From: Candidatus Omnitrophota bacterium
Lineage (GTDB): Bacteria; Omnitrophota; Gorgyraeia; Gygaellales; UBA12090
Assembly: GCA_030674475.1 (NCBI GenBank)
Contig: JAUSCZ010000012.1
Location: 319 to 64,318, forward strand
Length of the DNA stretch: 64,000 bases
Direction: 5' to 3'
Made by a program: the position numbers and the translations under genes. Below the pieces are notes generated by a model, which was not told the origin of the DNA, searched no databases, and worked only from the letters and a program-made list of their open reading frames with translations. The stretch's first letter is position 1; every line of letters starts with the position of its first letter. Positions 25,777-60,819 of this stretch are shown here, piece by piece.

Positions 25777-25818
25777 GAAATCCTCCCCTTACCAAGGGGA
25801 GGCGGGGTGGGGTTAAAA
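25777..25818. repeat. REP-like palindromic repeat
   Basis: 'AATCCTCCCCTTACCAAGGGGAGGCGGGGTGGGGTTAAA', immediately upstream of pabB. Confidence 0.6.
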
Positions 25819-27302: not shown

Positions 27303-27385
27303 ATAGATAAATGTGCAGGGGGAGAATGAGGGGGTTTTCCTGATTGTAATCGGTCAGAATGGAGACAAAATATTTTCCCTCTATT

Positions 27386-27457
27386 CCTCTCCCCTTGTGG
27401 GAGAGGTAAGAAATCCTCCCCTTACCAAGGGGAGGCGGGGAGGGGTTAGGTGAGGGG
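27386..27457. repeat. Tandem pair of REP-like palindromic repeats at the island boundary
   Basis: CCTCTCCCCTTGTGGGAGAGG followed by CCTCCCCTTACCAAGGGGAGGCGGGGAGGGG. Confidence 0.55.
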
Positions 27458-27515
27458 TACAAACTGTGAGTTTTCCCCTGAGAACTTACCGATTACTTAT
27501 AACAGAAAAAATGGC

Positions 27516-27554
27516 TTGACAATATGTCGCAAAAAGCATATACTTTTTGCGACA
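27516..27554 (+). promoter_or_regulatory. abiE promoter (TTGACA-17-TATACT) with an overlapping perfect 30-bp palindrome (putative AbiEi operator)
   Basis: TGTCGCAAAAAGCATATACTTTTTGCGACA spans the -10. AbiEi proteins are known to autoregulate via inverted repeats. Confidence 0.55.
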
Positions 27555-27571
27555 AGCGATAGGTTATAGAA

Positions 27572-28171
27572 ATGACACAAAGTATTTATAATAAAGTAGT
27601 TAGCATGATATACGGAATGAAGAGGGGTTGGGTATTTACTACAACTAATTTTCTTGATCTTGGAAGTCGCACGGCCGTGGCTAAAACCCTAGAGCGTTTA
27701 GCGGACTCCGGTACTATTCGCCGACTCGCGCGTGGCCTGTATGATTACCCGGAGAAACATCCTGTGTTGGGAGAGTTACCCGCGAATTATGAGCGCATCG
27801 CTCAAGCATTGGCAGGAAGGGATAGTTTGAAAATTCAACCTTCCGGGGCATATGCCGCTAATCTGCTTGGTTTAACCGAACAGGTGCCGGCAAGAATTGT
27901 TTTTTTGACAGATGGCTCCAATAGAAAAGTGCAGGTCAAAAATCAGCAGATCATTTTGAAAAGAACAACCCCCAAGAATATGGCAACCGCCGGGAATGTG
28001 AGCGGTTTGGTCATTCAGGCTTTGCGGTATTTAGGTAAAGATCACGTAGATGCTAAAACAGTAGGAATACTTAATAAGAGATTAACGGGAGATGATAAGC
28101 GCCAGCTTATGCGCGATCTTCGCTATGCCCCCGCGTGGATAGGATCAATATTTAGACAACTACAGAGATAA
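27572..28171 (+). CDS. abiEi: AbiEi-family type IV toxin-antitoxin antitoxin / transcriptional regulator
   Basis: 'TAVAKTLERLADSGTIRRLARGLYDY' matches the AbiEi N-terminal wHTH. Paired with a downstream AbiEii gene. Confidence 0.7.
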   Translation: MTQSIYNKVVSMIYGMKRGWVFTTTNFLDLGSRTAVAKTLERLADSGTIRRLARGLYDYPEKHPVLGELPANYERIAQALAGRDSLKIQPSGAYAANLLGLTEQVPARIVFLTDGSNRKVQVKNQQIILKRTTPKNMATAGNVSGLVIQALRYLGKDHVDAKTVGILNKRLTGDDKRQLMRDLRYAPAWIGSIFRQLQR

Positions 28172-28178
28172 GAAGATT

Positions 28179-29204
28179 ATGGATAAATTCGTATTGTTGA
28201 CGCGTAAAGATAAACGCGCGTACTTTGAAGTGGCCGCGGCTAACTTGAACATAATGCCGCAACTGATTGAAAAGGATTTTTGGGTATGCTGGATACTAAA
28301 AATTATTTTTTCATTACCGAAGGTCGGCGCGCATTTAACCTTTAAAGGGGGAACATCCCTCTCAAAATGTTATAACGTTATTAAACGCTTTTCGGAAGAT
28401 ATCGATATTTCAATAGAAAGGCCTTTTTTATCAAAGACCCATGCTATCGAACCGGATAAAGAAAAAAGCAATAAGGAAAATCAGAAAAGACTCAAGGAAT
28501 TGCAATTGGTTTGTAAAACAAAAATTGATGAAATGATCATCCCCAGCTTAAAACAATCAATCGCGGCAGTTCTTTCCGATACCGGGGAATGGAAAATTGA
28601 ACCGGATTCCGGGGATGAGGACGGACAAACTGTTTTATTTATCTTTCCTCATGCTATGACGAGTACCGCGGAAAGTTACGTAAGATCCTCAGTCAAAATT
28701 GAATTTGGCGCTCGATCTGATCATTGGCCGGTTGAAACCGCGACAATTGTCCCCTATGTCGCGAATGTTTCCGGGGAGCGGGTTATTGAAGGGGCTTCCG
28801 CGCGCGTTTTAGCCGCGGAACGGACTTTTTGGGAGAAAGCGACGATCCTGCATATGATATATCATTATCCGTCTGAAAAAAACATACCGCCGCGAATGTC
28901 GCGGCATTATTACGATATATACGCGATGGCAGATTCGCCCATATATAAAAAAGCATTAAAGAGTATTTCGTTGTTAAAACATGTATCTGACCATAAATCT
29001 CTATTTTTTAAAGCGAATTGGGCGCATTATGATACAGCCAAGTCGGGTACCTTGCGGTTAGTGCCTCGTGATAATCTGGTGAGCCAACTGAAAAATGATT
29101 ACCGTCAAATGCAGCAAATGTTTTTTGAAGAGCCTCCGTCATTTGAGCAAATTATAGAAAAACTCCGGGCCATAGAAGAACAGATTAATAGGATCTCCTT
29201 ATGA
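28179..29204 (+). CDS. abiEii: AbiEii/AbiGii-family nucleotidyltransferase toxin (DUF1814)
   Basis: 'FKGGTSLSKCY...SEDIDIS' NTase motif typical of AbiEii. Confidence 0.75.
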   Translation: MDKFVLLTRKDKRAYFEVAAANLNIMPQLIEKDFWVCWILKIIFSLPKVGAHLTFKGGTSLSKCYNVIKRFSEDIDISIERPFLSKTHAIEPDKEKSNKENQKRLKELQLVCKTKIDEMIIPSLKQSIAAVLSDTGEWKIEPDSGDEDGQTVLFIFPHAMTSTAESYVRSSVKIEFGARSDHWPVETATIVPYVANVSGERVIEGASARVLAAERTFWEKATILHMIYHYPSEKNIPPRMSRHYYDIYAMADSPIYKKALKSISLLKHVSDHKSLFFKANWAHYDTAKSGTLRLVPRDNLVSQLKNDYRQMQQMFFEEPPSFEQIIEKLRAIEEQINRISL

Positions 29205-29349
29205 ATTACTACTGCACCTCAGATTATCACTTTTCGCGTTGCGTAAAAAAGAAGGCCCTGGCCTTATCCAATCCCGAACTGCATCGCCTTGCGCGAAAAC
29301 TATTAGAAGTTTAAAGGGAAAAAAGGAAAAATGGGGTCAGGGAATAATA

Positions 29350-29453
29350 GGGTCAGCGACCATTTTATTGAAAGATGGAGGAAATTTTGGGAAGCGTTAA
29401 CTATAATGAAAAAGGACAGACCACGAAAATGACAATAAATGGTCGCTGTCCTT
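29350..29453. repeat. Small TIR element (GGGTCAGCGACCAT ... ATGGTCGCTGTCC), GGGGTCAG-family relative
   Basis: A 12-nt inverted repeat with one mismatch flanks ~76 nt. It is preceded by a partial GGGGTCAG at 29333. Confidence 0.4.
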
Positions 29454-29530
29454 ATTTTCCGATTGTTCGCCTGGGCAAGGATTTTTGCAAAAAGACTAAA
29501 CCAAGGTGTGAAATATGCCCGATAAAGTAA
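29452..29530 (+). pseudogene. Fragment homologous to the 3' end of the endonuclease III-like gene at 45146..45787
   Basis: It translates to '..PIVRLGKDFCKKTKPRCEICPIK*', versus 'ALIVRLGKDFCKKTNPKCEICPIK*' at 45723..45787. The helicase start codon (29515) lies inside it. Confidence 0.6.
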
Positions 29531-32500
29531 AGAAACAATCCGAAGTGCAAAACAAAGCAATCAGGCTTTTTACTTATCTCGAAAAAGCCCTTTCTCTCGA
29601 TGACACTATCGTGAGAGATTTTCGGTCTACTATCACTGCACCTTCTCCTTGGTGGCTGGCAGATTTACCTGATGATGTTGAAAATCTTCAAGTTAGGCAG
29701 TTTGAAACTAATCAGACTGGGGATGAGGAGAATGCGACTCAAGATGAGGTTTGGCTTCGTGTGGAGAAAAAGAGTATCAAATCTGCTCCGCCGATGCCGG
29801 ATGCTCTGAACGAATGGATTGATGAAGTGAATCCCATTGAGACCCCAAAAGCAAAGGAAAAAATTGACCGGAAGATAAAGTTTGATCAAGACGAAACTCG
29901 CGCTCGGGAATTCAAAAAATTCAGAAAAGAATTTGCTCAAGGAAACAAGCCGCCGAAACTTCTTGAGGAATGGGTTGTTTTGAGCCCAAATAAATTTCCC
30001 GAGGTTATAGAAGAAAGATATATTGAGGAATACTTTAACGATCACCCCGAACTCCAAAGTCTTCTTAATGACTACATTGAGAACGAATGGAAGCCGTGGG
30101 CGCAAAAAGTGGTAAAAATCTACAAGGCAAATTTGCTTTATGACCAACTCTATGCCTTACGCTTTCTTTTGAAAAACGAGGGGGATAGTTATGAGTTGTT
30201 ATGGGGACACGGTTTACTCACATGGAAGCACGGTGGCATAGGGACAATTTATGCACCGATCTTTTTAACTCCTTTAACGCTGGGTTTTGACGCTTCAAAG
30301 AGAGTAATTGAGATTTATCCCGATCCAATGTTTCGGGGTTTTGCGGAAATTTCATCCCTGTACGAAATGGATAATCCCGCAGAAATGGACTTGATAACAT
30401 GGTCGGACAAAATCAATTCAAATCCATTCAACTTTTGGCATTTTGAAACACTCAAAACGCAGACGCGGTTTATGATAAACACACTCTCAACCTCAAGTGA
30501 AGACTATTTTGACGAAAAACTTGTTTCTGCTCCCAATTCTACCGTAACGCCGAGTATTTGGAACGCGCCAGTGATATTTGCGCGGAAACGGACAAATGAC
30601 CTTTGGTCAAAATACGCGGGTATTATTCGGCGCGATATCGAGCAGAACAACATAGAACCGACAGAGTTTATTGCCGATCTTGTTGGCAACTATCAAGAGA
30701 CGGAGCAAATAGAAAGCGAGAATGGCGGCGAAAAAGAAGGCGAAACGATACTAAAAGAATCAGAATTGTTTTTCCCGTTGCCATGGAATGATGAGCAAAA
30801 AAGAATCGCGGAACGGCTTGATGCGCATTATGGGGTCGTAGTAAAAGGTCCGCCGGGCACCGGAAAAACTCACACTATCGCCAATCTTATTTCTCGCTTT
30901 CTGTCACAAGGAAAGACTGTTTTGGTTACATCACAAACGAGTAAGGCATTGGAAGTTTTAAGAGATAAATTACCAGAAAATATTCGAAGCCTTGCCGTCT
31001 CGCAACTCCATCAAACCGCGAGACAGGACGATGTATTACAACAATCAATTACTGAGATTAGCTCTAACCTGGGAGAGCGGCATACAAAATTCAGCGAGCA
31101 AAAAGCGGAAATTAAAAGAAAGGAACTTCAGGGCGTCAGGGAAGAGAGAGCACCTCTCGCAAATCAAATAAGGAAGTACATTCTTACGGACTCAAGCGTA
31201 AAAATTGAAATAGACGGAGAGGAAATCAATCCTATTGACGCGGCGAAGTTGGTTAGCAGGTACAAAGATGATCCAACGCTTGAATGGTTTACGGATAAAA
31301 TTCACTTTGAGACAAAACTCAATTTCAAAGACGAAGATTTAGAAGAAATCTACATGTTACTTACAGAACTTAATTCCGAAGAGCGGCAACTACATAAATT
31401 TGAGTTACCAATGACCTTCAGTCTACCAAGCGAAGATGCGGCAACGGGAGTTTTTTCCTCATACCGAGATCTAAGTGATAGGGTGAAAACATCAAATAAA
31501 GTTTTTGGCGACTCCAATCCAAACCTCCAGCAGGAGAAACTCACAACCCTATGGGAACAACTATCAAGCGCTAAAAAGGTTTTATTTTCCATAAACAAGG
31601 ATTATGAAAAAGAGATTTTTGGATTGTGTATAGTCAGCCAAAGCGAGCGAGAAAAATGGCGCGTCGTCCTTTCAAAAATTGGCGAGAAAATCTATTTGAT
31701 CGGCAAAAGTAGTACAAGCATTCTCGGCCACGAAATTATCGGTAACCAAAACATCCCGCTCACTGATCTTTTGGAGGCAATATCTGTTCTGAAGGAAAAG
31801 GCGAGAGGTAGAACAAAGATAGGGACTTTTGCGAAGTTGCTTTTGTCGTCTCATGGGAAAAAGGTTTTGGAGAGCTACAAAGTAGACGGCCGCGTTCCCG
31901 AAGATGCAGAACGCTTGGAAATTCTGCACCAAAGCGTTCTTATCAAGCAAGCACAGAAAGAAATTAAAACTTTATTGGGACAAAGTTTTTCTCACCTGAA
32001 GTCGCCTTTTGATTCGCAGGATCAAGAGGTTGATGTGGTACAACTTGAGGTATTGATCTCAAGTCTTGAAAGGATAATCAATTACTACGAAAACTTTGTT
32101 ACCATAGACAAATTTTGCAAAGCAATAAGACAACTTTCCGATTTTGCGTTTACTAAAATCGAGGATATCGAAAAACTTACTGAAATCATTTCGTCCCATG
32201 TAGCGAAATTTGAGATCGTGAATTTAGAAACTTTATTGTCCGGCTGGACTCAATCAATTGAGACATCTATAAACGGCGAAAGACACTCAATCATAGAAAA
32301 ATTACTATCGGCGATAAACAAACGGAATACAACCGCATGGAGAAACGCCCTTGATGAACTCGGGTTGCTTCTTGATAAAAAGCAAAGGGCGATCCGCTTG
32401 AATGAATTATCTCAAAAAGTTAAAGAACTCTCTCCGAATCTCTATCAGGATATTGGTGGACTTGCCGATCAGAAAAAAAAGCTTTTGTGCCCTAAAAATC

Positions 32501-34113
32501 TCGGTCTTGCATGGAAAATAGCGCGACTCGAATCGTGGCTCGATCATATCCATAATCATATTGATATTGATAGTTTGCAAAATCAATTAGAGCGGCTAAC
32601 CAAAAAAGAATATCAACTGAATTCCGATCTCGTAACTATTCTCGCTTGGCAGAGACAGATTGATAAGGTTACGAAAAAACAACGTGATGCGCTGATGGCG
32701 TGGTCGCACGAGATGAAAAAGTATGGAAAGGGTACCGGCAAGTGGGCGATTACGCATCTCCGTGCGGCACAAGAGGCATTGAAAGAGGCGAAAAATGCCG
32801 TGCCTGTTTGGATTATGCCGCTCCATCGTGCCGCTCAAATGTTTTCGGATCCGAAGGCGGGAATGTTCGATATTGTTATTTTTGACGAAGCGAGCCAGTG
32901 CGATATACGAGGAATTACAATAGGATATCTCGGTAAAAAACTTCTCGTTGTCGGCGACCCAGAACAGATTAGCCCCGCCGGTATATTCCAAGATCAAGAG
33001 AAAATATTTGAACTCATTTCTCGATTTCTGTTTGATATTCCTTTCAAAGAAAGTTTCTCAATAACATCGAGCTTGTTTGATCTCGCAAAAATAAGATTAT
33101 CCAATATAATTCAGTTAAACGAACATTTTAGGTGCGTGCCGGAAATCATCGCATTCAGCAATCACCATATATACGAAGGAAAACTTAAACCTCTACGGTA
33201 TCCTCACCCTAAAGGATTATTGAAGCCCGCACTTGTTCCGATTTTTATAGAAACGGGCTATCAAAATACAAACAACAAAGTCAACGTGCCAGAAGCAGAA
33301 GCGATTGTTGAAAAGTTAGTTGAATGCCTAAATGACCCAAATTATCAAAAACGCCCGGATAATGTAGGTAGCCACATATGTACATTCGGGATCGTGTCTC
33401 TGCTTGCCGAAGATCAAGCGAAATATATCAAAGAGTTAATTTTAAGACGTATTGACGAGAGAACAATAGAGGAAAGGCGTATTGTTTGTGGAGATGCGTA
33501 TGCGTTTCAAGGAGATGAAAGGGATGTGATGTTTCTTTCTGTGGTGAAAGCACTCGATTCAAATGATCCGGAAGATGTAGTTAGATCTCTGACGGACGAG
33601 GGTACGAAACGAAGGTTTAACGTTGCCGCGTCTCGTGCCCGCGATCAGATGTTTTTATTTCATTCAATCCCCCTTGAAGAATTTAGAAACCCTAACGATT
33701 GGAGATATAAACTTCTCAACTGGTTTTACAATCCAAGGACCGAGGAATTGAATGCTGGGCGAGATGCCCTAAAGCGAGAGTTTAATTCTGGCAGGGCATC
33801 GCAGTTCTCTTTTGATGTTGGAAATATCCTGATCGATCGTGGCTATCAGGTTTTGCCGGAATATCCAGTCATTGGGTATCGAATTGACCTTGTTGTGCAG
33901 GGTGCAGAGGCTCGTCTTGCTGTGGAGTGCGATGGAGATCAATATCATACACTAGAAAATTGGGAAGAGGATCAAGTGCGAGAGAGACAGCTGAGAAGGG
34001 CTGGATGGGAATTTTGGAGAGTTACCGGAAGTGCGTTTTATCGAAACAAAGAAAAAGCTCTCGAAAGTTTATGGAAGAAACTAAACGAATTAGGCGTTAA
34101 ACCGATTATTTAA
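29515..34113 (+). CDS. 1532-aa SF1 (Upf1/DNA2-like) helicase with a DUF4011-like N-terminal region and a C-terminal Vsr/DUF559-type PD-(D/E)xK nuclease domain
   Basis: Walker A 'GPPGTGKTHTIANL', Walker B 'VIFDEASQ', 'VVGDPEQISP', 'CGDAYAFQGDERDVMFLSVV' and 'RRFNVAASRARDQMFLF' motifs. C-term 'YRIDLVVQGAEARLAVECDGDQYHTLENWEEDQVRERQLRRAGWEFWRV' matches DUF559. Confidence 0.8.
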   Translation: MPDKVKKQSEVQNKAIRLFTYLEKALSLDDTIVRDFRSTITAPSPWWLADLPDDVENLQVRQFETNQTGDEENATQDEVWLRVEKKSIKSAPPMPDALNEWIDEVNPIETPKAKEKIDRKIKFDQDETRAREFKKFRKEFAQGNKPPKLLEEWVVLSPNKFPEVIEERYIEEYFNDHPELQSLLNDYIENEWKPWAQKVVKIYKANLLYDQLYALRFLLKNEGDSYELLWGHGLLTWKHGGIGTIYAPIFLTPLTLGFDASKRVIEIYPDPMFRGFAEISSLYEMDNPAEMDLITWSDKINSNPFNFWHFETLKTQTRFMINTLSTSSEDYFDEKLVSAPNSTVTPSIWNAPVIFARKRTNDLWSKYAGIIRRDIEQNNIEPTEFIADLVGNYQETEQIESENGGEKEGETILKESELFFPLPWNDEQKRIAERLDAHYGVVVKGPPGTGKTHTIANLISRFLSQGKTVLVTSQTSKALEVLRDKLPENIRSLAVSQLHQTARQDDVLQQSITEISSNLGERHTKFSEQKAEIKRKELQGVREERAPLANQIRKYILTDSSVKIEIDGEEINPIDAAKLVSRYKDDPTLEWFTDKIHFETKLNFKDEDLEEIYMLLTELNSEERQLHKFELPMTFSLPSEDAATGVFSSYRDLSDRVKTSNKVFGDSNPNLQQEKLTTLWEQLSSAKKVLFSINKDYEKEIFGLCIVSQSEREKWRVVLSKIGEKIYLIGKSSTSILGHEIIGNQNIPLTDLLEAISVLKEKARGRTKIGTFAKLLLSSHGKKVLESYKVDGRVPEDAERLEILHQSVLIKQAQKEIKTLLGQSFSHLKSPFDSQDQEVDVVQLEVLISSLERIINYYENFVTIDKFCKAIRQLSDFAFTKIEDIEKLTEIISSHVAKFEIVNLETLLSGWTQSIETSINGERHSIIEKLLSAINKRNTTAWRNALDELGLLLDKKQRAIRLNELSQKVKELSPNLYQDIGGLADQKKKLLCPKNLGLAWKIARLESWLDHIHNHIDIDSLQNQLERLTKKEYQLNSDLVTILAWQRQIDKVTKKQRDALMAWSHEMKKYGKGTGKWAITHLRAAQEALKEAKNAVPVWIMPLHRAAQMFSDPKAGMFDIVIFDEASQCDIRGITIGYLGKKLLVVGDPEQISPAGIFQDQEKIFELISRFLFDIPFKESFSITSSLFDLAKIRLSNIIQLNEHFRCVPEIIAFSNHHIYEGKLKPLRYPHPKGLLKPALVPIFIETGYQNTNNKVNVPEAEAIVEKLVECLNDPNYQKRPDNVGSHICTFGIVSLLAEDQAKYIKELILRRIDERTIEERRIVCGDAYAFQGDERDVMFLSVVKALDSNDPEDVVRSLTDEGTKRRFNVAASRARDQMFLFHSIPLEEFRNPNDWRYKLLNWFYNPRTEELNAGRDALKREFNSGRASQFSFDVGNILIDRGYQVLPEYPVIGYRIDLVVQGAEARLAVECDGDQYHTLENWEEDQVRERQLRRAGWEFWRVTGSAFYRNKEKALESLWKKLNELGVKPII

Positions 34114-34155
34114 AAAACCATTAGAGTAAGCCAAAGTTGAAGAATACAGAAAAAT

Positions 34156-34229
34156 GGGGTCAGAGTGAATTTATGATGGCAGAATCGTGAGGGGAATAGA
34201 GAGAATGCTTAAAAAATAGACCTGACCCC
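34156..34229. mobile_element. 74-nt MITE, GGGGTCAG...CTGACCCC family, copy A
   Basis: Terminal inverted repeats GGGGTCAG/CTGACCCC. Identical, including short flanks, to copy C at 35536. Confidence 0.7.
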
Positions 34230-34249
34230 TATATTTGGCTGAAAATAAA

Positions 34250-34322
34250 GGGGTCAGAGCGGATTTAGGATGGTAGAATCGTGAGGGGATGGAGGGAATA
34301 CTTTAAAAGTAGACCTGACCCC
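34250..34322. mobile_element. 73-nt MITE, same family, copy B (diverged)
   Basis: GGGGTCAGAGCGGATTTAGGATGGTAGAATCGTGAGGGG...AGACCTGACCCC. Confidence 0.65.
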
Positions 34323-34431
34323 GACTCCTATGTGCGTTGAAGTAGCGAAAGCAAAATTTGCAATGAAACAGGCATGTAAGAGGTTAGTTTTCGCTATGAG
34401 CTTTATTACGGCTTAAATCTATGATTCTAAT

Positions 34432-35379
34432 ATGAAGAAATATGCAGATTCAATAACACAATATTTACAAAATGAATTAAAGAATTCTGCAGTTAGTTAT
34501 TTAAAGGCAGGGTTGGAGATTTTTCATAAGACAAATAAAGCAGGAAGTTGGAGCAGTCAACCTGCTTTGGGAAATTTGGGGATAGCGGTAGAATTGATGT
34601 TAAAGGCGTTTATCGTAAAAAATAATCCCCTTCTCCTTTTTAAAGGGTTGCCTATAGAACTTCAGGTGTTATTTACTTGCCCTGATTCTTTGCCCCGAGA
34701 TTTTAATTGGAGACTATTTGATATCGATTTACGATCATTTAAGTATGAAACCAAAGAATTAAATGAGTGTATCTCAGCATTTTATGTATTATTACCAGAG
34801 CATAAACAAGAGCTTAATCCGTACATGCAATTATTATCACGGTATAGAAATGCTAGTGTTCATTCTGCTTTGCCTTCATTTCAGGCCTATGAGATTCAAA
34901 GAGTGGCGTTTCTATCGTTGCGTTTGTTATCAATTCTCCAGTCTCGAAAAATAATCTCTGAGTATGCGCACATCACTACAAAAGATGACAAGTATTTCCT
35001 TTCTGCATTTAAACTTGACCGAATCGACCGTGTTAAGAAGAAAATCGATGATGCTAAGGAAAAGTCAAAACGTATTCCAGCGGGGCAAGCTTCATTGAGC
35101 GTAGATGGTTGGGAGAACTATGTGACACAATGTCCAATATGCGAATCTGACGGGATGCTTTCTGGCTATACAGATATACATGTTGAAGGGTCAGCAGAAG
35201 ATGTTGATCTATCGCTAGACTTTCTCGCAGATGGATTCATATGTGAAGAGTGTGGATTAGAGTTAAATGATACTGAAGAACTCAGGTTGGCAGGGATAGA
35301 GTTGTATTATGATCGTTCTAGTGAATTAGATGCATGGCATAGGGATCAGTATGAGCCTGATCCAAGTGAATATCTATAA
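34432..35379 (+). CDS. Hypothetical 315-aa protein with an Rx4H (HEPN-like) motif and a C-terminal zinc ribbon
   Basis: 'LLSRYRNASVHSALP' (R-x4-H) at aa ~139-144; 'CPICESDGM...CEECGLEL' Cys pairs. No other recognisable motif. Confidence 0.4.
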   Translation: MKKYADSITQYLQNELKNSAVSYLKAGLEIFHKTNKAGSWSSQPALGNLGIAVELMLKAFIVKNNPLLLFKGLPIELQVLFTCPDSLPRDFNWRLFDIDLRSFKYETKELNECISAFYVLLPEHKQELNPYMQLLSRYRNASVHSALPSFQAYEIQRVAFLSLRLLSILQSRKIISEYAHITTKDDKYFLSAFKLDRIDRVKKKIDDAKEKSKRIPAGQASLSVDGWENYVTQCPICESDGMLSGYTDIHVEGSAEDVDLSLDFLADGFICEECGLELNDTEELRLAGIELYYDRSSELDAWHRDQYEPDPSEYL

Positions 35380-35535
35380 CTATTTGCTTTTATGAACGAA
35401 GCCTATCCCCTTAAAATTCCGTCAGTTTTTTTGAAAAAAGAGGGAGAAGGATAGCGGGGTAAATAGGGTTAGCTTAGGTTGTCCCTATTTTTTCAAAGAG
35501 GAGCAATTTGGAAAAATTATTGCAGAGGGAATAAT

Positions 35536-35609
35536 GGGGTCAGAGTGAATTTATGATGGCAGAATCGTGAGGGGAATAGAGAGAATGCTTAAAAAATAGA
35601 CCTGACCCC
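35536..35609. mobile_element. 74-nt MITE, same family, copy C
   Basis: Identical to copy A. Confidence 0.7.
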
Positions 35610-35639
35610 TATATTTCCTATATTTACGCGGAACATCTG

Positions 35640-36412
35640 GAAGTATGGTATGGGCAGAAAAAAACAGAGACTATCAGCCGGCTAAGAGGAGAATACAAAC
35701 ACAGGATAAATTACCGGCATATCATAGATTGGCTGGTAAGGAAGCCCGGCGCATTCCAACAATACCGGTATCGGCAGGATATGTTCCCCACGACAATATT
35801 CCGCCTGGCATATGACAATTTAATAGCGCATAGCCCTGCCAAAGGGCATAAGGATTATCTGGAGATATTATATTTAGCTTCAAAAGAGAGCGAAACAGGG
35901 GTTGGACAGGCATTGGAGAGCCTTTTAGAGAATCAGCAGGCTATAAATATGGACGCGGTCAGGAAAATCTTAGAAGTGGATACAGAAAAAACATCAGTTG
36001 CGGATATACGAATCGACAGTATTAACTTATATGATTACGATGAATTCCTGACGGTTAAGGAGGCAGCCTGATGATAAAGACAGCAATCAATATTAAGTCG
36101 CGCCTCAAGGAAATGTTAAAAGAACTGCATTTATCAGCAATCAGGGAATCGTATGAAGAGCTGGCAAAAGACGCGCAAGCGAATTCGTTATCTCCTGAAG
36201 AATTTTTATTAGGATTGACTGAGCGGGAATGTGAATACCGGCGGTTAAGACGAACAGATCGGTTATTACGGGAATCGCGGCTGCCGCTGGAGAAAACGAT
36301 GGAGTTATTTAATTTAAAACGGCTGCCGGCGATAGTAATCCAGAAGGTAAAAAGCCTGCTTGATGGTGAATTCCTTAACCCCTCCGAAAATGGGGTCAGC
36401 CCCGGACAGTAG
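35640..36412 (+). mobile_element. IS21-family remnant: istA C-terminal fragment and 3'-truncated istB (N-terminal 113 aa only)
   Basis: 'MLKELHLSAIRESYEELAKDAQANSLSPEEFLLGLTERECEYRRLRRTDRLLRESRLPLEKTMELFNLKRLP' matches the IstB N-terminal domain. It stops before the Walker A box, exactly where repeat E1 begins. The upstream ORF 'DMFPTTIFRLAYDNLIAHSPAKGHKDYLEIL...' abuts it as istA does. Confidence 0.65.
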
Positions 36413-36470
36413 ACATTAATTGATAAAAGATTAATTGAATGACTATAATCGCGTTTTGTCCACACAACGC
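36392..36470 (+). repeat. Repeat E1: GGGGTCAG-initiated ~78-nt element end carrying an inward sigma70 promoter (TTGATA-18-TATAAT)
   Basis: ~90% identical to E2 (37480..37548). It truncates istB and sits 170 nt upstream of the DUF3800 gene. Confidence 0.6.
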
Positions 36471-36642
36471 TTAATTCATCGAATTCGATGGGGAGATAAA
36501 AAATGGACATCCTTTGTAACATGTTGAAATCTTTAACAGGATAGATAAATATTGTGACAAAGTTAATCTTGTTAAAAAGATTGGGCTAATCGTTTTTATC
36601 CGCGAAGTAGAGTAAAACGTGGCTGTGCAGAAGGCAGGGTAA

Positions 36643-37295
36643 GGTGTTTTATTTATATCTAGACGAAAGCGGTGATTTGGGGGTTTGATTTTGTTACTAA
36701 GAAACCCTCAAAATTCTTCACTATCATGGTGCTCGTGCTGAAAGGACAGGATAAGAACCGCGCGCTTATTAATGCGGTAAAGCATACATTAAGGCGCAAG
36801 TTAGGGAAAAGGAAGCTGTTCAAGAGCATTGGCTGCGAATTAAAGGCAAGCAGGGTGTCTATTGAAATTAAAAAGTATTTCTACGACCAGGTCAAGGGGT
36901 TGGATTTCAAATTGTATACGTTGACTCTCAACAAGAAAAGGGTGTATCAAAGCTTAATGCAAGAAAAGGAGAGAATTTATAATTACCTCGCCCGCTTAGT
37001 GTTGGATAAGATAAGTTTTGATAATGCTGAAGTCAGGGTTACGCTGATAGTGGACAAAAGCAAGGGTAAGCCTGAAATTTCCGAATTCAATTCATATATC
37101 TTTAGGCAGATTCAGGCAAAAATTGATCCCAAGATACCATTAGATATTGAGCATGCGTTATCGCATGAGAACTTGGGTTTGCAAGCAGTGGATATGTTTA
37201 CTTGGGGGATATTCAGAAAATATGAGAGGAAAGACTTTGGGTGGTTCAGGGTATTTGAGAGCAAGATGGCTTACGATGATGTTTATCTACCATAA
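36643..37295 (+). pseudogene. DUF3800-family gene with a +/-1 frameshift in a G5 tract
   Basis: GTG-initiated 'VFYLYLDESGDLGV*' (the N-terminal DUF3800 DESGD motif) stops at 36686. The rest continues in another frame as 'GFDFVTKKPSKFFTIMVLVLKG...GLQAVDMFTWGIFR'. A single-base change in GGGGG would fuse them. Confidence 0.6.
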
Positions 37296-37626
37296 AATAA
37301 AAATGAGCGCGCCTTACAGGTTCGTTAAGTTTAGGCTTTTGCCCACCATACGGAGGGGAACACCTAAACAACCCGTAACGGTCTTACCGCTCACTTATAA
37401 GTATACCCTATGAGAAGGTTTTGTCAAGATGAAAATTTGGATAAATAGTCGTTTCTGTGCAAAACGACGGGAAAACGACGGGGTCAGACCCGGACAGTAG
37501 ACATTAATTGGTAAAAGATTAATCGAATGACTATAATCGCGTTATGTCCAACTATGGGATAGTAGAAACATATTGACAATGTAACTACATTGTAGTATTA
37601 TTGTAATAGAATAAGAAAATGAACCA

Positions 37627-37902
37627 TTGATGCATATTCATAGTTTTGACTGGGATGAGAAAAATGAAAACCATATAGCCGAACATGGAGTCGCGATCTT
37701 TGAGGTTGAGGAGGCAGTTCTATTTAGTAGGCCTTTCTATCAGAGAAGCAGGGAGGGTAAATATATTGCTTATTCTCTCACCGAGGAAGAGAGGTATCTC
37801 TTTATAGTTTTTGTGATCAAAGATAGTGGCCGGATAAGGGTGATTAGCGCCAGAGATATGAATGAGAAAGAGAAGCGTTATTATAAAAAGAAGAAGAGGT
37901 AA
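37627..37902 (+). CDS. brnT: BrnT-family ribonuclease toxin (DUF497)
   Basis: 'FDWDEKNENHIAEHGVAIFEVEEAV...RVISARDMNEKEKRYY' matches BrnT. Confidence 0.75.
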   Translation: MMHIHSFDWDEKNENHIAEHGVAIFEVEEAVLFSRPFYQRSREGKYIAYSLTEEERYLFIVFVIKDSGRIRVISARDMNEKEKRYYKKKKR

Positions 37903-37909
37903 AATAAAC

Positions 37910-38239
37910 ATGAAGAAACTGCCCAAATTCAAAACGGAAAAAGAAGAGGCCAGTTTTTGGGATACGCACAGCCCATTGGATTATCCAGGTGAGTTCAGTG
38001 AGGTAAAGAATCCGTTTGAATTCGCTCCCGGTCTTTTAAAAAAAGCCGCCCGAAGCCGCGAAGAAAGAAAACGCCAGCTTACCTTAAGGATGGGGCAGCG
38101 TCAAATTGATCTCGCCAAGGTTATTGCTAAATATAAAGGATTGGGCTATCAAACTCTAATGAGAATATGGGTTATTGAAGGAATCCGTCAAGAGATTAAG
38201 ACGCATCCAGAGATAGAAAAACTCCTTACCAAAATATAG
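37910..38239 (+). CDS. brnA: BrnA-family antitoxin
   Basis: 'KKLPKFKTEKEEASFWDTHSPLDY' matches the BrnA N-terminus. C-terminal RHH-like region. It overlaps brnT. Confidence 0.7.
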   Translation: MKKLPKFKTEKEEASFWDTHSPLDYPGEFSEVKNPFEFAPGLLKKAARSREERKRQLTLRMGQRQIDLAKVIAKYKGLGYQTLMRIWVIEGIRQEIKTHPEIEKLLTKI

Positions 38240-38337
38240 CTAAATAAAAAGCTGGAGAGAATGGGTTAAGCTCAAGCAATAGAAATTAACTTCTAAAGTT
38301 GAGGTCTGACCCCAGAAAGTGCAGCGGTACCATTTAG

Positions 38338-39150
38338 ATGAAAATTTGGCTTAATGGGAAATTTGTAAAAGAGGAAGAAGCGAAGGTTGACATTACCTCA
38401 AGCGGTTTTTTATACGGCCAGGGGGTTTTTGAGACGATGCGGGCTTATAATGAGCGGGTTTTTCGTTTGGACAGCCATCTGGAGCGCCTGTTTAAGGCCC
38501 TGCCTATTCTTAACCTGGAATTATCCGTAGGACCTGAGGTTTTGAAAAAGGCGCTTAAGCAGGCTTTAAAAGAAAATAATCTTAAAGACGCCTATTTACG
38601 GATAACGGTCTGGCAGGGGAAAGATAAGGTTGAGGCCGCGGTTTTTGCCCGGGCGTATAATTTTTTAACCAAAGAGGATTACCATAAAGGCTTTAAGGCG
38701 ATAGTTTCCAGTTTTCGCCAGAATGAATTTTCCATCTTTTCCGGAATTAAGTCCGCTAACTATTTGCCTTTACTCCTGGCTTATCAGGAGGCAAAAAAGA
38801 AAAATGCCGATGAGGCCATACTTTTAAATACCCGGGATTTTCTGGTTGAGGCCTCCCGGGCTAATCTCTTTTTAGTTAAAGATAATTGTTTATTGACCCC
38901 ATCGTTAGACTGCGGATGCCTTCCCGGAATTACCCGGGATACGGTTTTAGGCCTGGCGGCTAAGGAAAAGATAAAGGTAATTGAGACTAAGCTTAAACCG
39001 GAGGATGTCCAGAGAGCCGAGGAGGCCTTTTTGACTAATTCCTTGATTGAGGTGATGCCGCTGGTCGCGGTTGAAGGAAGGCCGATTAAAAAAGGAGTTC
39101 CCGGTAAGATTGCCGAGCGTATTTTAAAACGTTACAAGGGATTGACTTAA
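38338..39150 (+). CDS. pabC: Class IV aminotransferase-fold protein, probable aminodeoxychorismate lyase
   Basis: Fold-type IV PLP enzyme ('GQGVFETMRAY', 'EAFLTNSLIEVMPLV'). It is the only nearby partner for pabB. Confidence 0.6.
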   Translation: MKIWLNGKFVKEEEAKVDITSSGFLYGQGVFETMRAYNERVFRLDSHLERLFKALPILNLELSVGPEVLKKALKQALKENNLKDAYLRITVWQGKDKVEAAVFARAYNFLTKEDYHKGFKAIVSSFRQNEFSIFSGIKSANYLPLLLAYQEAKKKNADEAILLNTRDFLVEASRANLFLVKDNCLLTPSLDCGCLPGITRDTVLGLAAKEKIKVIETKLKPEDVQRAEEAFLTNSLIEVMPLVAVEGRPIKKGVPGKIAERILKRYKGLT

Positions 39151-45145: not shown

Positions 45146-45787
45146 ATGAGTTCAAAAGTTTACCAACTGGAAGCTATCTATGATAAACTCTACCGCCATT
45201 TTGGCCCCCAGTCCTGGTGGCCGGGAGAGACTCCTTTTGAGGTTATCGTAGGGGCTATTCTCACCCAGAGCACCAATTGGCAGAATGTTTCCAAGGCGAT
45301 AGATAATCTAAAAAAGTCCAAGGTGTTGACTCCTAAGAAACTTCATGCCTTGCCCCAACCGCGCCTGGCTGAACTTATCCGGCCTTCGGGTTATTTTAAC
45401 GTTAAGGCCAAACGGTTGAAGGAATTCCTGAATTTCTTATTTAAGAATTACGGTGGAAGCCTGAAAAAAATGTTCAGCCGCCCCTTAGAAGACCTAAGAA
45501 AGGAAATCTTAGCTGTCCGCGGAATCGGCCCGGAAACCGCCGACTCCATCCTGCTTTATGCCGGAGGCCTTCCGGTATTTGTGGTGGATGCCTATACCAA
45601 GAGGATTTTTTCCCGTCAGAAGCTTTTAAGCGAGGACGCGGAGTATTATCAAGTCCAGGAATTATTTACCCGAAGCCTTAAAAAAGATGTCCAATTATAC
45701 AACGAATACCACGCCCTGATCGTGCGCCTGGGAAAAGACTTTTGCAAGAAAACCAACCCCAAATGCGAAATCTGCCCGATAAAATAA
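45146..45787 (+). CDS. Endonuclease III-like HhH-GPD DNA glycosylase family protein
   Basis: HhH-GPD region 'VGAILTQSTNWQNV...RGIGPETADSILLY'. C-terminal Cys cluster 'CKKTNPKCEICP' (three Cys only). Confidence 0.6.
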   Translation: MSSKVYQLEAIYDKLYRHFGPQSWWPGETPFEVIVGAILTQSTNWQNVSKAIDNLKKSKVLTPKKLHALPQPRLAELIRPSGYFNVKAKRLKEFLNFLFKNYGGSLKKMFSRPLEDLRKEILAVRGIGPETADSILLYAGGLPVFVVDAYTKRIFSRQKLLSEDAEYYQVQELFTRSLKKDVQLYNEYHALIVRLGKDFCKKTNPKCEICPIK

Positions 45788-45860
45788 AAGCAAAAGGCTT
45801 GACAATCTCCGAATTCTCTAGTAAGATTATGGAGTTACTTATTCCAAAAAAGGACTTATT

Positions 45861-47054
45861 GTGGAAACAATAATACCAAGATTATTTACGCCGCCTAAAC
45901 AAAGTTTTTTTCTTTTCGGGCCCCGCGGAACGGGGAAATCAACATGGCTCAAAGCACATATGCCGGATGCCATCTGGATTGATTTATTGGAAGCTGACCA
46001 GTTTCGCTCATACAGCGCCAGGCCGGAACGGCTTAAAGAGCTTGTGCTTGCTGAAACCGGGAAGAAAATCGTAGTCATTGATGAAATTCAAAAAGTTCCC
46101 GATTTATTAAGCGTAGTGCATTCTCTTATTGAAAAAAAACTTGGGTTTAGGTTTATCCTTACAGGTTCAAGCCCGCGAAAATTGAAGAAAACGGGAGCGG
46201 ATTTGCTCGCGGGAAGAGTGATTAAGCAGGCGTTTCATCCTTTTATGGCGGTTGAGCTTGGCAGGAAATTTAATCTTAATTCAGCGTTAAAACAAGGGCT
46301 TCTGCCGCTGGTGTTTTCTGCTGCCGCTCCTGAGGCGGTATTAAGGACTTACGCTTCGTTATATGTCAGAGAAGAAGTTCAAGCGGAAGGGCTGACGCGT
46401 AACATCGGCAATTTTTCAAGATTTCTTGAAGCGGTCAGTTTTTCTCACGGTTCATTGCTTAATACGAGTAATGTTGCCAGAGATTGTGAAGTTGAAAGGA
46501 AAACAGTAGAAACATATATAACAATTCTTGAGGATTTTCTTTTGGCTTATCGTATACCTGTTTTTTCAAAGAAAGCTAAAAGGGCAACGATAACTCATCC
46601 TAAGTTCTACTATTTTGACGCGGGGGTTTACCGCTCGCTTAGGCCTTGCGGGCCTTTGGATAGGCCTGAGGAAATAGAAGGAGCGGCGCTTGAAGGGCTG
46701 GTTGCCCAGCATTTGACGGCCTGGAGTTCTTATCGAGGCGAAAAAAATAAAGTTTATTTTTGGAGGACCGCGGCCGGGTCCGAAGTGGATTTTGTGGTAT
46801 ATGGAGAAGAGGTGTTTTGGGCTATAGAAGTTAAAAATACTTCAAAGATAAGGCCGGAAGATCTTCGCTCCCTAAGAAGTTTTAAATCCGAGTATCCGCA
46901 AAGCAGCGCGTTTTTATTGTATCGCGGTAAAGAACGCTTGAAAAAAGACAATGTGCTCTGTATCCCTTGCGATGAATTCCTGTTAAACTTGAACCCTGAA
47001 AAAATACAAATAAACTACGGGCCGGACCCGGACGGGAAAGTGAGGTCAGAATGA
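45861..47054 (+). CDS. AAA-family ATPase (COG1373, DUF4143)
   Basis: Walker A 'GPRGTGKST'; 'IDEIQKVPDL'; the C-terminal DUF4143 region parallels the 1..953 gene. Confidence 0.65.
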   Translation: METIIPRLFTPPKQSFFLFGPRGTGKSTWLKAHMPDAIWIDLLEADQFRSYSARPERLKELVLAETGKKIVVIDEIQKVPDLLSVVHSLIEKKLGFRFILTGSSPRKLKKTGADLLAGRVIKQAFHPFMAVELGRKFNLNSALKQGLLPLVFSAAAPEAVLRTYASLYVREEVQAEGLTRNIGNFSRFLEAVSFSHGSLLNTSNVARDCEVERKTVETYITILEDFLLAYRIPVFSKKAKRATITHPKFYYFDAGVYRSLRPCGPLDRPEEIEGAALEGLVAQHLTAWSSYRGEKNKVYFWRTAAGSEVDFVVYGEEVFWAIEVKNTSKIRPEDLRSLRSFKSEYPQSSAFLLYRGKERLKKDNVLCIPCDEFLLNLNPEKIQINYGPDPDGKVRSE

Positions 47055-47117
47055 ATTTAGGATGACAGAATTATAAGGGGAATAGAGAGAATGCTTAAAA
47101 AATAGACCTGACCCTGT
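47042..47117. mobile_element. MITE, GGGGTCAG-family, copy D (5' end degenerate), overlapping the ATPase stop codon
   Basis: 'GAGGTCAGAATGAATTTAGGATGACAGAATTATAAGGGGAATAGAGAGAATGCTTAAAAAATAGACCTGACCC', followed by a duplicated CTGACCCTGTAAAC. Confidence 0.6.
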
Positions 47118-47143
47118 AAACTGACCCTGTAAACCCCGTTTCT

Positions 47144-47569
47144 GTGATAAAAAAGCAGGATCATAAGGAAAAATATGGTATATTCGCGGAGAATCCTTAC
47201 GATTTAGCAATGATGTTTTGTATGGAGAGACTCTTGCCATTACTCGAGGAGAAGAATCAAGGCGGAGTGCAACTTATCGCGGAGAGTCGTGGAAAGAAAG
47301 AAGACGATGAGTTGATGTTAAGTTTTTTACGGATTGCTAATCAGGGTACCAGCTACATACCTGCTGTTCGATTTAAAAAGATAAATTTCAAGCTGAAATT
47401 TGTTCCTAAAATGATGAATGTGGTAGGCACGCAGTTAGCGGATTTGGCAGCTTATCCGGTTGCTCGGTATATACATAATCCTAATAAGCAAAATTCAGCA
47501 TACGATATTGTTAAGACAAAATTTTACAAGGGCGAAGGATGGATACAGGGATTGAAAATATTTCCATAA
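47144..47569 (+). pseudogene. 5'-truncated DUF3800-family gene (C-terminal ~140 aa only)
   Basis: 'VVGTQLADLAAYPVARYI' parallels 'GLQAVDMFTWGIFR' of the 36643 copy. The N-terminal DESGD part is absent, and a MITE lies immediately upstream. Confidence 0.5.
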
Positions 47570-47751
47570 AAACAAAAAGCCCCGATTCGCATCAGAGCTT
47601 TTTGCCGACCGGGAATCCCCAGTCCCTTAATTCAATTTCTATATAAAATATACCTCGGAAATAGTTGTTTGTCAAGATATTTCATAGTATAGTAAGATTT
47701 TGGAATTGCTGATTCCAAAAATGGACTTAAAATGGAAATGCGGAAAAAGCT

Positions 47752-60720: not shown

Positions 60721-60819
60721 GGCGGGAAAAAAAGGCAAACCATCCGTAAGGATGGGGCGCAAAGCTTCCGGTCCTAGAACGAATGAAGTGAATCGTAGGA
60801 TAGCGGAGCCGCCAAGGGG
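60721..60819 (+). promoter_or_regulatory. c-di-GMP-I (GEMM) riboswitch aptamer
   Basis: 'GGCAAACCAUCCGUAAGGAUGGGGCGCAAAGCUUCCGGUCCUAGAAC...UAGGAUAGCGGAGCCGCC' is near-identical in its conserved blocks to the Vibrio Vc2 aptamer ('GGCAAACCAUUCGAAAGAGUGGGACGCAAAGCCUCCGGCCUAAACC...UAGGUAGCGGGG'). P1 closes by GGCGG/CCGCC. Confidence 0.75.

Follow-up and report, generated by a model that had tools for sequence, protein, structure and literature searches.

How does a toxin-antitoxin (TA) pair come to lie between two inverted termini in an island of anti-phage defence genes that holds no transposase? The question is raised by a 64-kb stretch of DNA (hereafter the window) from a Candidatus Omnitrophota bacterium, in which the genes brnT and brnA are enclosed by a left-end repeat, E2, and a right-end repeat, H'. 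A first-pass annotation of this DNA saw here a possible family of TA-carrying, non-autonomous transposable elements that also supply promoters to their cargo. With moderate confidence, we read positions 37472-38320 as the shell of a TIRtron in which the transposase has been replaced by brnTA, a shell that would be movable only in trans and is probably a fossil at this site. The repeats belong to a published family and are known in kind; what is new here are the cargo-bearing shells, the left end as a putative promoter, and the ends as cassette junctions in defence islands of Omnitrophota.

In the original description, TIRtrons are presented as TIRYT genes, similar to those of the REP-associated tyrosine transposases (RAYTs), flanked at a fixed distance by terminal inverted repeats (TIRs) of the motif GGGGWSAS, and some of these TIRs form repeat families whose members are found singly, in pairs or in clusters (Di Nocera, De Gregorio & Rocco, 2013, PMC3733652). 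Most TIRYTs fall into TnpA_REP subclass 2.1, with Bac_DnaA_C or helix-turn-helix (HTH; HTH_23, HTH_28) C-termini (Quentin et al., 2018, PMC6006769). The family seen in the first-pass annotation is already published, as a branch of the Y1/HUH transposons that has been studied very little. In the literature found, no transposition of TIRtrons is shown and no cargo is reported, and limited literature searches returned nothing describing such cargo shells, a left-end promoter, confinement to defence islands or TIRtrons of Omnitrophota. The locus and its relatives tie concrete end sequences to an intact transposase and offer natural shells with cargo in place of the transposase. Their junctions indicate where cutting probably occurs, which makes biochemical tests easy to design, and they would throw light on the packaging and reshuffling of TA and defence genes in a phylum without cultivated members.

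The brnTA Unit and Its Ends

The cargo of the unit is conventional. The genes brnT (37630..37902, + strand; PF04365, 50.8 bits against a cut-off of 34.5), which codes for the ribonuclease toxin, and brnA (37910..38239, +; PF12441, 34.6 bits against 28), which codes for the CopG-type antitoxin, are separated by 7 nt, with the toxin gene first, and form a type II TA pair of the BrnT/BrnA kind that lies between the inverted arms, as had been annotated. Nothing is unusual in the two proteins, whose interest is one of context only, and BrnT homologues of 81-91% identity are widespread in contigs of Omnitrophota. The pair has a promoter of its own (TTGACA-17-TATTAT, 37573..37601, +), which overlaps the palindrome ACAATGTAACTACATTGT, likely the operator of BrnA. 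Of the sequence upstream of brnTA, nothing but this promoter/operator is conserved in unrelated contexts, and a scan of contigs found it in 83 metagenome loci. The E repeat was also considered as a part of the brnTA module and rejected as such, being absent from the 81-91% homologues elsewhere, which share only the promoter/operator.

To the left of brnTA lies E2 (37472..37550, +), which reads AAAACGAC followed by GGGGTCAGACCCGGACAGTAGACATTAATT and ends 22 nt before the TA promoter; to the right lies H' (38263..38320, +), which starts 24 nt past the brnA stop codon and consists of a degenerate inner arm (GGGTTAAGCTCAAGC), a loop (AATAGAAATTAACTTCTAAA) and a perfect outer arm (GTTGAGGTCTGACCCC), with a 7-nt extension, AGAAAGT. 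The left tip is AAAACGACGGGGTCAGACC and the right tip ...GAGGTCTGACCCCAGAAA, and the E and H' ends read GGGGTCAGACC...TTAATT. Together they form an inverted repeat of 30 nt (37480-37509 against 38284-38313) that is 77% complementary and perfect over the outer 11 nt; the 11-nt TIR previously proposed is present, with its right tip at 38313 rather than 38310.

E2 has a sister copy, E1 (36387..36462, +; AAAAT followed by GGGGTCAGCCCC), and the 94% identity of the two over 71 nt (36392-36462 and 37480-37550) agrees with the earlier reading. A promoter scan recovered the inward promoter-like sites that had been described in both copies, TTGATA-18-TATAAT at 36420-36449 in E1, where it faces the DUF3800 gene (36672-37295) downstream, and TTGGTA-18-TATAAT at 37508-37537 in E2 (-35 at 37508-37513, -10 at 37532-37537). 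Measured from the tip of E2, the -35 element occupies positions 29-34 and the -10 element 53-58, and an ATG (37544) follows at +64. E-type sequence stands directly upstream of other cargo as well, namely the DUF3800 gene in the window and a Schlafen/AlbA_2 gene in a relative (L045; loci other than the window are given by such numbers). The suggestion that the repeats supply promoters to their cargo can be kept as far as the inward promoter of the left end goes, but brnTA has a strong promoter and an operator of its own, and this promoter is better than those of the E repeats. The pair would be transcribed mainly from its own autoregulated promoter, to which the left-end promoter could add read-through.

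Transposase Genes between the Same Ends in Relatives

The earlier statement that the window holds no cognate transposase is borne out by our search of the 64 kb, which found no transposase or integrase; outside the two variable spots described below, the window consists of housekeeping genes. Related genomes do have a transposase gene between ends of this kind, and it codes for a Y1/HUH enzyme of the TIRYT type. In L026-L031, arrays reached through BrnT homologues in other Omnitrophota, an element of ~430 bp has a 27-nt TIR (on the left AATAAC followed by GGGGTCAGACCTCGAAGTTAGAAGTTA, on the right TAACTTCTAACTTCGAGGTCTGAACCC followed by TTG) and an interior made of a decayed gene. The N-terminus encoded by this gene matches Y1_Tnp proteins, one of them named "REP element-mobilizing transposase RayT" by JGI, and its C-terminus is weakly DnaA_C-like; a word-based search for homologues of the decayed transposase yielded mainly fragments. 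L034 and L035 carry longer Y1 genes with (A/G)GGGTCAG 62-64 nt upstream of the start codon. The distance from the GGGG tip to the ATG is 64 nt in E2, as against 62-64 nt to the transposase ATG in L026, L034 and L035.

An intact TIRYT of 313 aa (Y1_Tnp, 52 bits) is encoded in L072, a contig from Hainich groundwater that had been retrieved for its TA operator. The protein scores 81.9 bits on the NCBIfam model REP_Tyr_transpos (NF047646), against a cut-off of 80, and its gene has a TIR of at least 19 nt and a stop codon inside the right end (GAGACCTGACCC). The Bac_DnaA_C matches are weak (E 1e-4 to 1e-3, 19-22 bits, under the Pfam cut-off of 31.5), and NCBIfam DnaA models match the same C-terminal stretch weakly. 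Within single loci of the relatives, transposase genes are multiple and decayed. Ends of this kind flank Y1 tyrosine transposase genes at five independent loci, never a Tn3-type TnpA. L092, by comparison, holds a canonical hairpin-ended IS200, clearly unlike these 19-27-nt TIRs.

Alignment places ~30 nt of homology in E1 and E2, in the reverse complement of H' and in the left and right ends of transposase-bearing elements, and the homologous counterpart of H' in L026 and L027 is made up of the last transposase codons and the right end. A solo copy that stands in an unrelated context in L017 matches the first 38 nt of E2 at 100% identity. To judge from these sequences, E corresponds to the left terminus of a TIRtron, transposase promoter and start codon included. 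The GGGGTCAG...CTGACCCC units of the window can then be understood as ends and miniature non-autonomous derivatives of TIRtrons, i.e., of elements in which a single TIRYT gene (RAYT-like, Y1/HUH, with a C-terminal DnaA_C-like HTH) lies between GGGGWSAS TIRs. On this view E2 is what remains of the left end, together with the promoter and start codon of the transposase, and H' what remains of its last codons and the right end. A TIRYT acting in trans on such a shell would cut both ends on one strand and move it through a circular single-strand intermediate. Circular single-strand intermediates are used by Y1 enzymes of the IS200/IS605 type.

A Repeat Family Confined to Two Variable Spots

That the shell belongs to a real family of repeats, as first proposed, is borne out by counts of the octamer GGGGTCAG, which occurs 11 times on the two strands of the window as against 1.27 +/- 1.19 times in shuffled sequences, with none of 100 shuffles reaching 11. 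All but one of these occurrences lie within 29333-38313; the eleventh, at 50024 inside a peptidase gene, looks like chance. GGGGTCAG fits GGGGWSAS, of which the window has 22 instances against 10.1 expected, and the entire excess comes from GGGGTCAG at 29.3-38.3 kb. The repeat units run from GGGGTCAG to CTGACCCC.

The four units of ~74 nt reported earlier are all present. A1 (34149..34236, +) has a 74-nt core (34156-34229) with a 7-nt A-rich extension on the left and a 7-nt extension (TATATTT) on the right, and sits 40 nt past the helicase-nuclease gene. Its left end matches the 24-nt TIR (AAAAAAGGGGTCAGAGTGATTTTT) of a decayed TIRYT gene that is also found in L072, and its right end resembles the TIR of a Y1 element in L098 (GGGGACGTTTCTATTTTT). 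A2 (34243..34329, +) is diverged, its 73-nt core (34250-34322) being 86% identical to A1, and A3 (35529..35616, +; core 35536-35609) is identical to A1 over 84 nt and abuts an insertion sequence (IS) relic of the IS21 type with its right tip. A4 (47037..47133, +; core 47042-47115, 92% identical) is degenerate and overlaps the stop codon of an AAA_14/DUF4143 gene; the exact octamer tips that had been ascribed to it read GAGGTCAG/CTGACCCT. An orthologous partial copy of A4 follows the AAA_14 gene in L017.

The partial copies noted upstream of the helicase gene (29333-29456) are likewise real. One is a solo left-end tip (29326..29348, +), GAAAAAT-GGGGTCAG-GGAATAAT, which the next element cuts off after 8 nt and which shares 15 nt (GAAAAATGGGGTCAG) without a mismatch with the left tip of the 34149 unit. 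The other is a miniature TIR element of a different subtype (29339..29460, +), AATAAT-AGGGTCAGCGACCATTT ... AAATGGTCGCTGTCCT-TATT, whose 20-nt arms (29346-29365 and 29437-29456) are 90% complementary and which as single-stranded DNA folds into a hairpin (-17.2 kcal/mol, z -3.7). A similar element, AATAGGGCCAGAC...CTGTCCCTATT, adjoins brnTA in L018.

Comparison of the copies indicates that the conserved unit overruns GGGG by 5-9 A-rich nt on the left (AAAACGAY, AAAAAT or AATAAC, almost always with a G immediately before) and CCCC by 7 nt on the right (AGAAATT or TATATTT). The repeats have the inverted termini, small size and several copies of miniature inverted-repeat transposable elements (MITEs). 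They are nevertheless not MITEs in the classical sense implied by the first-pass annotation: no direct flanking repeat of 2-9 nt, and hence no target-site duplication, was found in seven copies of the window or in the copies of relatives, and the implied mechanism would be a single-strand one of the Y1 type. By analogy with IS200/IS605, the conserved extensions and the lack of target-site duplications would fit cleavage a few bases outside the recognised structure.

Every copy lies in one of two variable spots, with none in the other 46 kb of housekeeping genes. The larger spot is an insertion island (27303-38337) between pabB (Chorismate_bind, 25818-27302) and pabC (Aminotran_4, 38338-39150), in which each gene is set apart from the next by end relics. 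The site is empty in L017 (PabC 84% identical), where pabB and pabC overlap by 17 nt with nothing between, and in L007-L013 (90% identity) it holds only a hairpin, E, brnTA and H'. The smaller spot, 3' of an HhH-GPD gene, holds the AAA_14/DUF4143 gene (PDC-S01), A4 and a truncated DUF3800 gene. When a collection of viral contigs was scanned for the A-type left end and the E core, no match was found, and a like scan of species-representative genomes gave only 4 matches, about the number estimated to arise by chance.

Recurrence of the Unit and the Case against Its Movement

Does the unit recur, and has it moved as a whole? The E-brnTA-H' unit, 831-882 bp long, is found in the window and the L007 clade and again in six more loci, drawn from the 83 metagenome loci with the TA operator, and its flanks are several. 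At least four different sequences follow CTGACCCCAGAAATT, among them pabC, an IS630 element (DDE_3), other cassettes and a further promoter region; in L043 the IS630-type element (DDE_3 and HTH_32) stands directly past the tip of H'. E-type and H-type relics also bracket the Schlafen/AlbA_2 gene in L045 and L119, with E directly upstream, together with a ribosome-binding site; in L022 the bracketing ends are of the A type, on the left as on the right, and the pair inside is a brnTA of 87% identity. Left-end and right-end relics recur together around cargo, where the earlier proposal would have been refuted by their not doing so, in the one case with a second kind of cargo and in the other with another brnTA between other subtypes of ends.

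Transposition of the ~850-bp unit as a unit is putative; where the unit recurs, the right flank varies and the left is mostly shared. Of the claim of a TA-carrying mobile unit, it is the family that stands. Several observations weigh against the shell reading. Firstly, the arms of the window match only 77% over 30 nt, as against 92-100% where the ends enclose a transposase gene, intact or decayed, so that the two ends may come from different elements. Secondly, the loci with a new right flank keep one left flank, a fragment of pabC (pabC'), and a change of neighbouring cassette therefore fits as well as movement of the unit. Thirdly, most brnTA homologues of 81-91% identity are found outside end pairs; in L072 and L026-L033, and likewise in L018, brnTA lies between a right end and the next left end or beside elements. 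Fourthly, all relatives with at least 87% pabC identity have an H-type relic directly before pabC, whatever the left neighbour, and H' may be a resident feature of the site rather than the unit's own end. In addition, the left tip in the L007 clade reads AGGGTCAG and has an extra complete hairpin upstream, the window has no TIRYT gene, a homopolymer artefact at the end of the contig hides the left tip of the intact element in L072, and the cleavage sites and single-strand mechanism supposed here are extrapolated from the biochemistry of IS200/IS605 and RAYTs.

These observations can be accommodated by a quite different history, in which E2 and H' stem from separate TIRtron insertions and decays, the brnTA cassette came to lie between them by chance and nothing ever moved whole. 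The imperfect arms, the homologues placed between or beside elements, the H-type relic that abuts pabC in all close relatives and the constant left flank all suit such an incidental sandwich, and because relics part every gene of the island, the order left end, gene, right end is to be expected by chance now and then. On the other hand, the packaging is tight on both sides of brnTA; E and H' each retain precisely the portion of one element that adjoins the transposase (promoter and ATG on the one side, last codons on the other); the same pairing of ends brackets the Schlafen cargo and, with A-type ends, another brnTA; and the block in which pabC' meets the left end can be had by circularly permuting "unit + pabC start". 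We regard the incidental sandwich as possible but less likely, and keep the TIRtron shell as the preferred reading.

Junctions and Possible Cassette Exchange

In the shell reading, the ends also act as break points at which defence and TA cassettes are added, lost or exchanged between the pabB/pabC spot and the spot downstream of HhH-GPD. The junctions speak to this. Directly before E2, a pabC 5' relic (AGATGAAAATTTGG, 37427-37440, identical to 38336-38349) is followed by a stuttered left-end extension (CAAAACGACGG), the two filling 37427..37471 (+). In L012 (62-160), L064, L108 and L045, ~95 nt of the pabC 5' end, starting exactly at TTAAGATG, are joined to the left-end extension, the junction reading CCAGGG, CAAAACGAT and GGGGTCAG in succession, and several of these loci do not have pabC as right neighbour, the copy being far removed from pabC in some contigs. 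Such a block, the circular permutation mentioned above, may derive from a head-to-tail junction that ran ~100 nt past the right end, whether in a circle or through tandem duplication; for the ~95-nt duplication of the pabC 5' end, tandem duplication and an aberrant circle both fit.

Another displaced piece of flank, a relic 71 nt long (29461-29531), comes from the gene for HhH-GPD (endonuclease III-like), of which it represents the 3' end; it is 79% identical to 45718-45788 and reads IVRLGKDFCKKTKPRCEICPIK up to the stop. It stands directly after a right end and before the helicase gene, whose annotated start lies inside it, and suggests that the helicase cassette was once downstream of HhH-GPD and moved with a piece of that flank. 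Resident insertion sequences are cut at the ends as well. The IS21 relic of the window (35617..36386, +), made of the 3' part of istA and the 5' part of istB, is cut on the left at the right tip of A3 and on the right at the left tip of E1; its similarity to IstB_IS21 extends to residue 107 of 113 (nt 36391, immediately ahead of E1) and covers profile positions 2-94 of 238, in keeping with the earlier remark that E1 truncates istB. An IS3 orfA fragment is cut exactly at a left tip in the same manner in L028 (427) and L029 (2400).

Tandem duplications of the tips, 9-26 nt long, are seen at both ends and in independent copies, in the window at 37460-37479 and 47108-47133 and in relatives at L011 3018-3046, L007 832-850 and L045 940-990. 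In A4 it is the right tip that is duplicated, with CTGACCCTGTAAA at 47108-47120 and again at 47121-47133, next to the truncated DUF3800 gene. Stuttering in cutting and joining and replication slippage at hairpins are both possible sources. The exact divergence at the ends, the truncations and the tip duplications together point to the tips as sites of breakage and joining.

Two loci with 87% PabC identity, L015 (360-395) and L016 (20-45), have AATGGG and TGACCCCAGAAATTTAAGATG before pabC and a different open reading frame (ORF) upstream, and the sequence resembles an H element of which only the two tips are left. The 43-residue ORF tail before pabC in L015 was considered as an IS110 transposase and rejected, as Pfam gives no support. 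A different miniature element of ~100 nt, whose inverted repeat is TTGAGCTTTGC...GCAAAGCTCAA, is inserted inside E in the metagenome contigs L043 (98-205) and L045 (2453-2560).

Among relatives, the order of genes in the arrays varies, and same-strand runs of small TA and defence genes have a hairpin after each gene; decayed TIRtrons separate the cassettes of these shuffled arrays. In L026-L033 (e.g., L026 788-830 and 1566-1700), purine-rich tandem repeats (GTGGTCAGAGAA, GAGGTCAGATGTCGGATGTCAG, GGATGAATGGATGA) fill intergenic stretches of the shuffled defence-gene arrays. In the window, A1 and A3 are perfect direct repeats of 84 nt (34153-34236 and 35533-35616) that flank A2 and a 315-aa ORF, an arrangement that could be a recent recombination-mediated insertion of a cassette. 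The order of segments across these identical 84 nt rests on the supplied assembly, which could be ambiguous there if made from short reads. BrnT and PabC, the window proteins compared with the Logan contigs, map only to short ones. In these short-read contigs from the source sample, breaks fall at A3 and at H' (L001, which begins within A3 as expected at a repeat, and L002), and both sequences are therefore repeated in that sample; the break points suggest that 38277-38313 occurs there in several contexts.

A bolder and, in our view, unlikely extension of the shell reading would make TIRtron ends and a TIRYT acting in trans a cassette-exchange system on single-stranded DNA, an analogue of integrons built on an HUH enzyme. 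In such a system, a left end with its promoter, a defence or TA gene and a right-end hairpin would leave together as a circle and re-enter at resident ends, and cassettes of this make-up would be shuffled between at least two hot spots, sometimes carrying pieces of neighbouring core genes. The joining of pabC' to the left end away from pabC, the HhH-GPD fragment in the pabB/pabC island, the various cassettes found after one and the same right-end tip and the decayed TIRtrons between cassettes of the shuffled arrays would fit such exchange. If true, it would provide a second and mechanistically different route to integron-like arrays; if no exchange takes place, the repeats are ordinary transposon debris in a defence island.

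Could the Repeats Be Something Else?

Three further explanations bear on the repeats rather than on the unit. They might be palindromes that serve the host, i.e., terminators similar to repetitive extragenic palindromes (REPs), stabilisers of mRNA or regulatory sites under selection, with a likeness to transposons that is ancestral only. Most copies do lie just past stop codons, some are orthologous where the PabC proteins are only 84% identical (A4 and its counterpart in L017), and H and A fold better than shuffled sequences. The complete H hairpins of L007 and L045, with a 16-bp stem made of left arm and right arm, reach -20.7 kcal/mol (z -6.7). REPs, moreover, are reported to lie mostly downstream of genes and often to be transcribed (PMC3733652). 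Yet no T-run follows the stems, a terminator scan found none at these sites, and the stems have no compensatory changes, the tips of A4 being simply degenerate. Copies truncate insertion sequences and each other and are all in the two variable islands, with none in the 46 kb of housekeeping genes. An Rfam search of A, E and H returned no family at gathering thresholds or at E-values up to 10, and a reading of A, E and H as RNA genes was dropped on the same result. We consider a service to the host distinctly improbable as the explanation.

Still less probable is that the island is an integron-like cassette array and the hairpins attC sites for an integron integrase. The same-strand TA and defence arrays with a hairpin after each gene and a variable gene order recall such an array, and the inner stem of H, CCTCAAC...GTTGAGG, is close to the core pair of attC, whose consensus is RYYYAAC/GTTRRRY. 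The reading was rejected because neither the window nor any of the other loci yielded an integrase and because the core motif is off the boundaries, AAC/GTT standing at the inner end of the stem and the cassette boundaries being the GGGG/CCCC extensions; the A-type and E-type units are without the motif, and it is with Y1 transposase genes that the ends are associated.

The Tn3 family is brought to mind by the GGGG at the tips and by the presumable likeness of GGGGTCAGAC to the start of the Tn3 repeat, GGGGTCTGAC. Derivation from the GGGG-started ~38-bp inverted repeats of a DDE transposon of the Tn3 family (TIME or MIC-type) is hardly credible all the same and was rejected, even though TA pairs are integral to many Tn3-family transposons (PMC7157771), for none of seven copies has a 5-bp target duplication, the transposases found with these ends are all of the Y1 kind, and the motif is the published GGGGWSAS of TIRYTs.

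Relation to Known Mobile Elements

The closest relatives of the repeats are the published TIRtrons. As in their description, a Y1/HUH gene lies between TIRs and not between REP hairpins, and GGGGTCAG fits the motif. The tip is at a fixed distance from the coding sequence, and in the loci of relatives the right end overlaps the 3' end of the gene. The TIR repeat families are a further point of likeness, and a C-terminal DnaA_C-like HTH, weakly matched, may be another. Unlike the published TIRtrons, which are transposase genes and bare TIR repeats, the shells described here enclose brnTA or, in relatives, a Schlafen/AlbA_2 gene. They also differ in that the left end would be a portable promoter, in that copies are confined to defence islands, where they mark cassette junctions, and in their Omnitrophota host.

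With the REP/REPIN-RAYT systems, the repeats share short non-autonomous palindromes thought to be moved in trans by the Y1 gene that they flank in inverted orientation and the lack of target duplications, and the L072 protein passes the NCBIfam model of REP-associated tyrosine transposases. They differ in having no GTAG or CGTC tag at either end, in long TIRs that pair with each other rather than self-folding hairpins of 20-40 nt, and, as far as the 64 kb show, in their distribution, as the repeats of the window, unlike REPs with their hundreds of extragenic copies, are not dispersed over the 46 kb of core genes. Only the collapsed H form is a hairpin, the A-type and E-type ends not being self-complementary. 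Whereas RAYT genes are single-copy and housekeeping-like (PMC5581495), the transposase genes of the relatives are multi-copy, decaying and IS-like.

A Y1 HUH enzyme, the absence of target duplications and conserved sequence outside structured ends are also found in IS200/IS605 elements and palindrome-associated transposable elements (PATEs), and a circular single-strand intermediate of the IS200/IS605 kind would explain the junction of pabC' with the left end. The G that stands before nearly all A-rich left extensions may hint at insertion 3' of a fixed short target, as in IS200/IS605. Canonical IS200/IS605 elements, in contrast, have subterminal hairpins in direct orientation and no TIR, whereas the TIRs here measure 19-27 nt, and they have no C-terminal HTH and usually carry tnpB as passenger, not a TA pair. 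In the TA modules borne by Tn3-family transposons, finally, a type II TA pair lies inside GGGG-started ends as it does here (Lima-Mendez et al., 2020, PMC7157771), and by analogy brnTA would likely stabilise the element or its neighbourhood. The enzyme associated with the present ends is Y1 and not DDE, no 5-bp duplication is seen, and Tn3 has a resolution module.

Host and Neighbouring Features

The nearest named PabC homologues of this Candidatus Omnitrophota bacterium come from metagenome-assembled genomes of Omnitrophica WOR_2. Besides brnTA and the IS21 relic, the pabB/pabC island carries AbiEi/AbiEii, a helicase-nuclease of 1532 aa (PADLOC PDC-S37-like) and the DUF3800 gene with its RNA; the 315-aa ORF between A1 and A3 has no Pfam or PADLOC match. 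The RNA is a DUF3800-V RNA (Rfam RF02964, 76.5 bits against a gathering threshold of 37.4) at 37300-37398 (-), convergent with the DUF3800 gene, and a promoter-like site, TTGACA-16-TATACT (37400-37427, -), ends 2 nt before the RNA match. The second DUF3800 gene, at 47144-47569 after copy A4, is truncated at its 5' end.

A leader of 49 nt stands before the AAA_14/DUF4143 gene (45819-45867) and, 84% identical, before an M1-peptidase/Omp85 gene (47690-47738). In L017, three AAA_14 genes lie in tandem, each preceded by the 49-nt leader, and in view of this array the second leader copy of the window may mark a lost AAA_14 paralogue. Further downstream, a c-di-GMP-I-GGC riboswitch aptamer (Rfam RF03167, 59.7 bits against a gathering threshold of 59) is found at 60725-60817 (+), before the gene for a HEAT-repeat protein.

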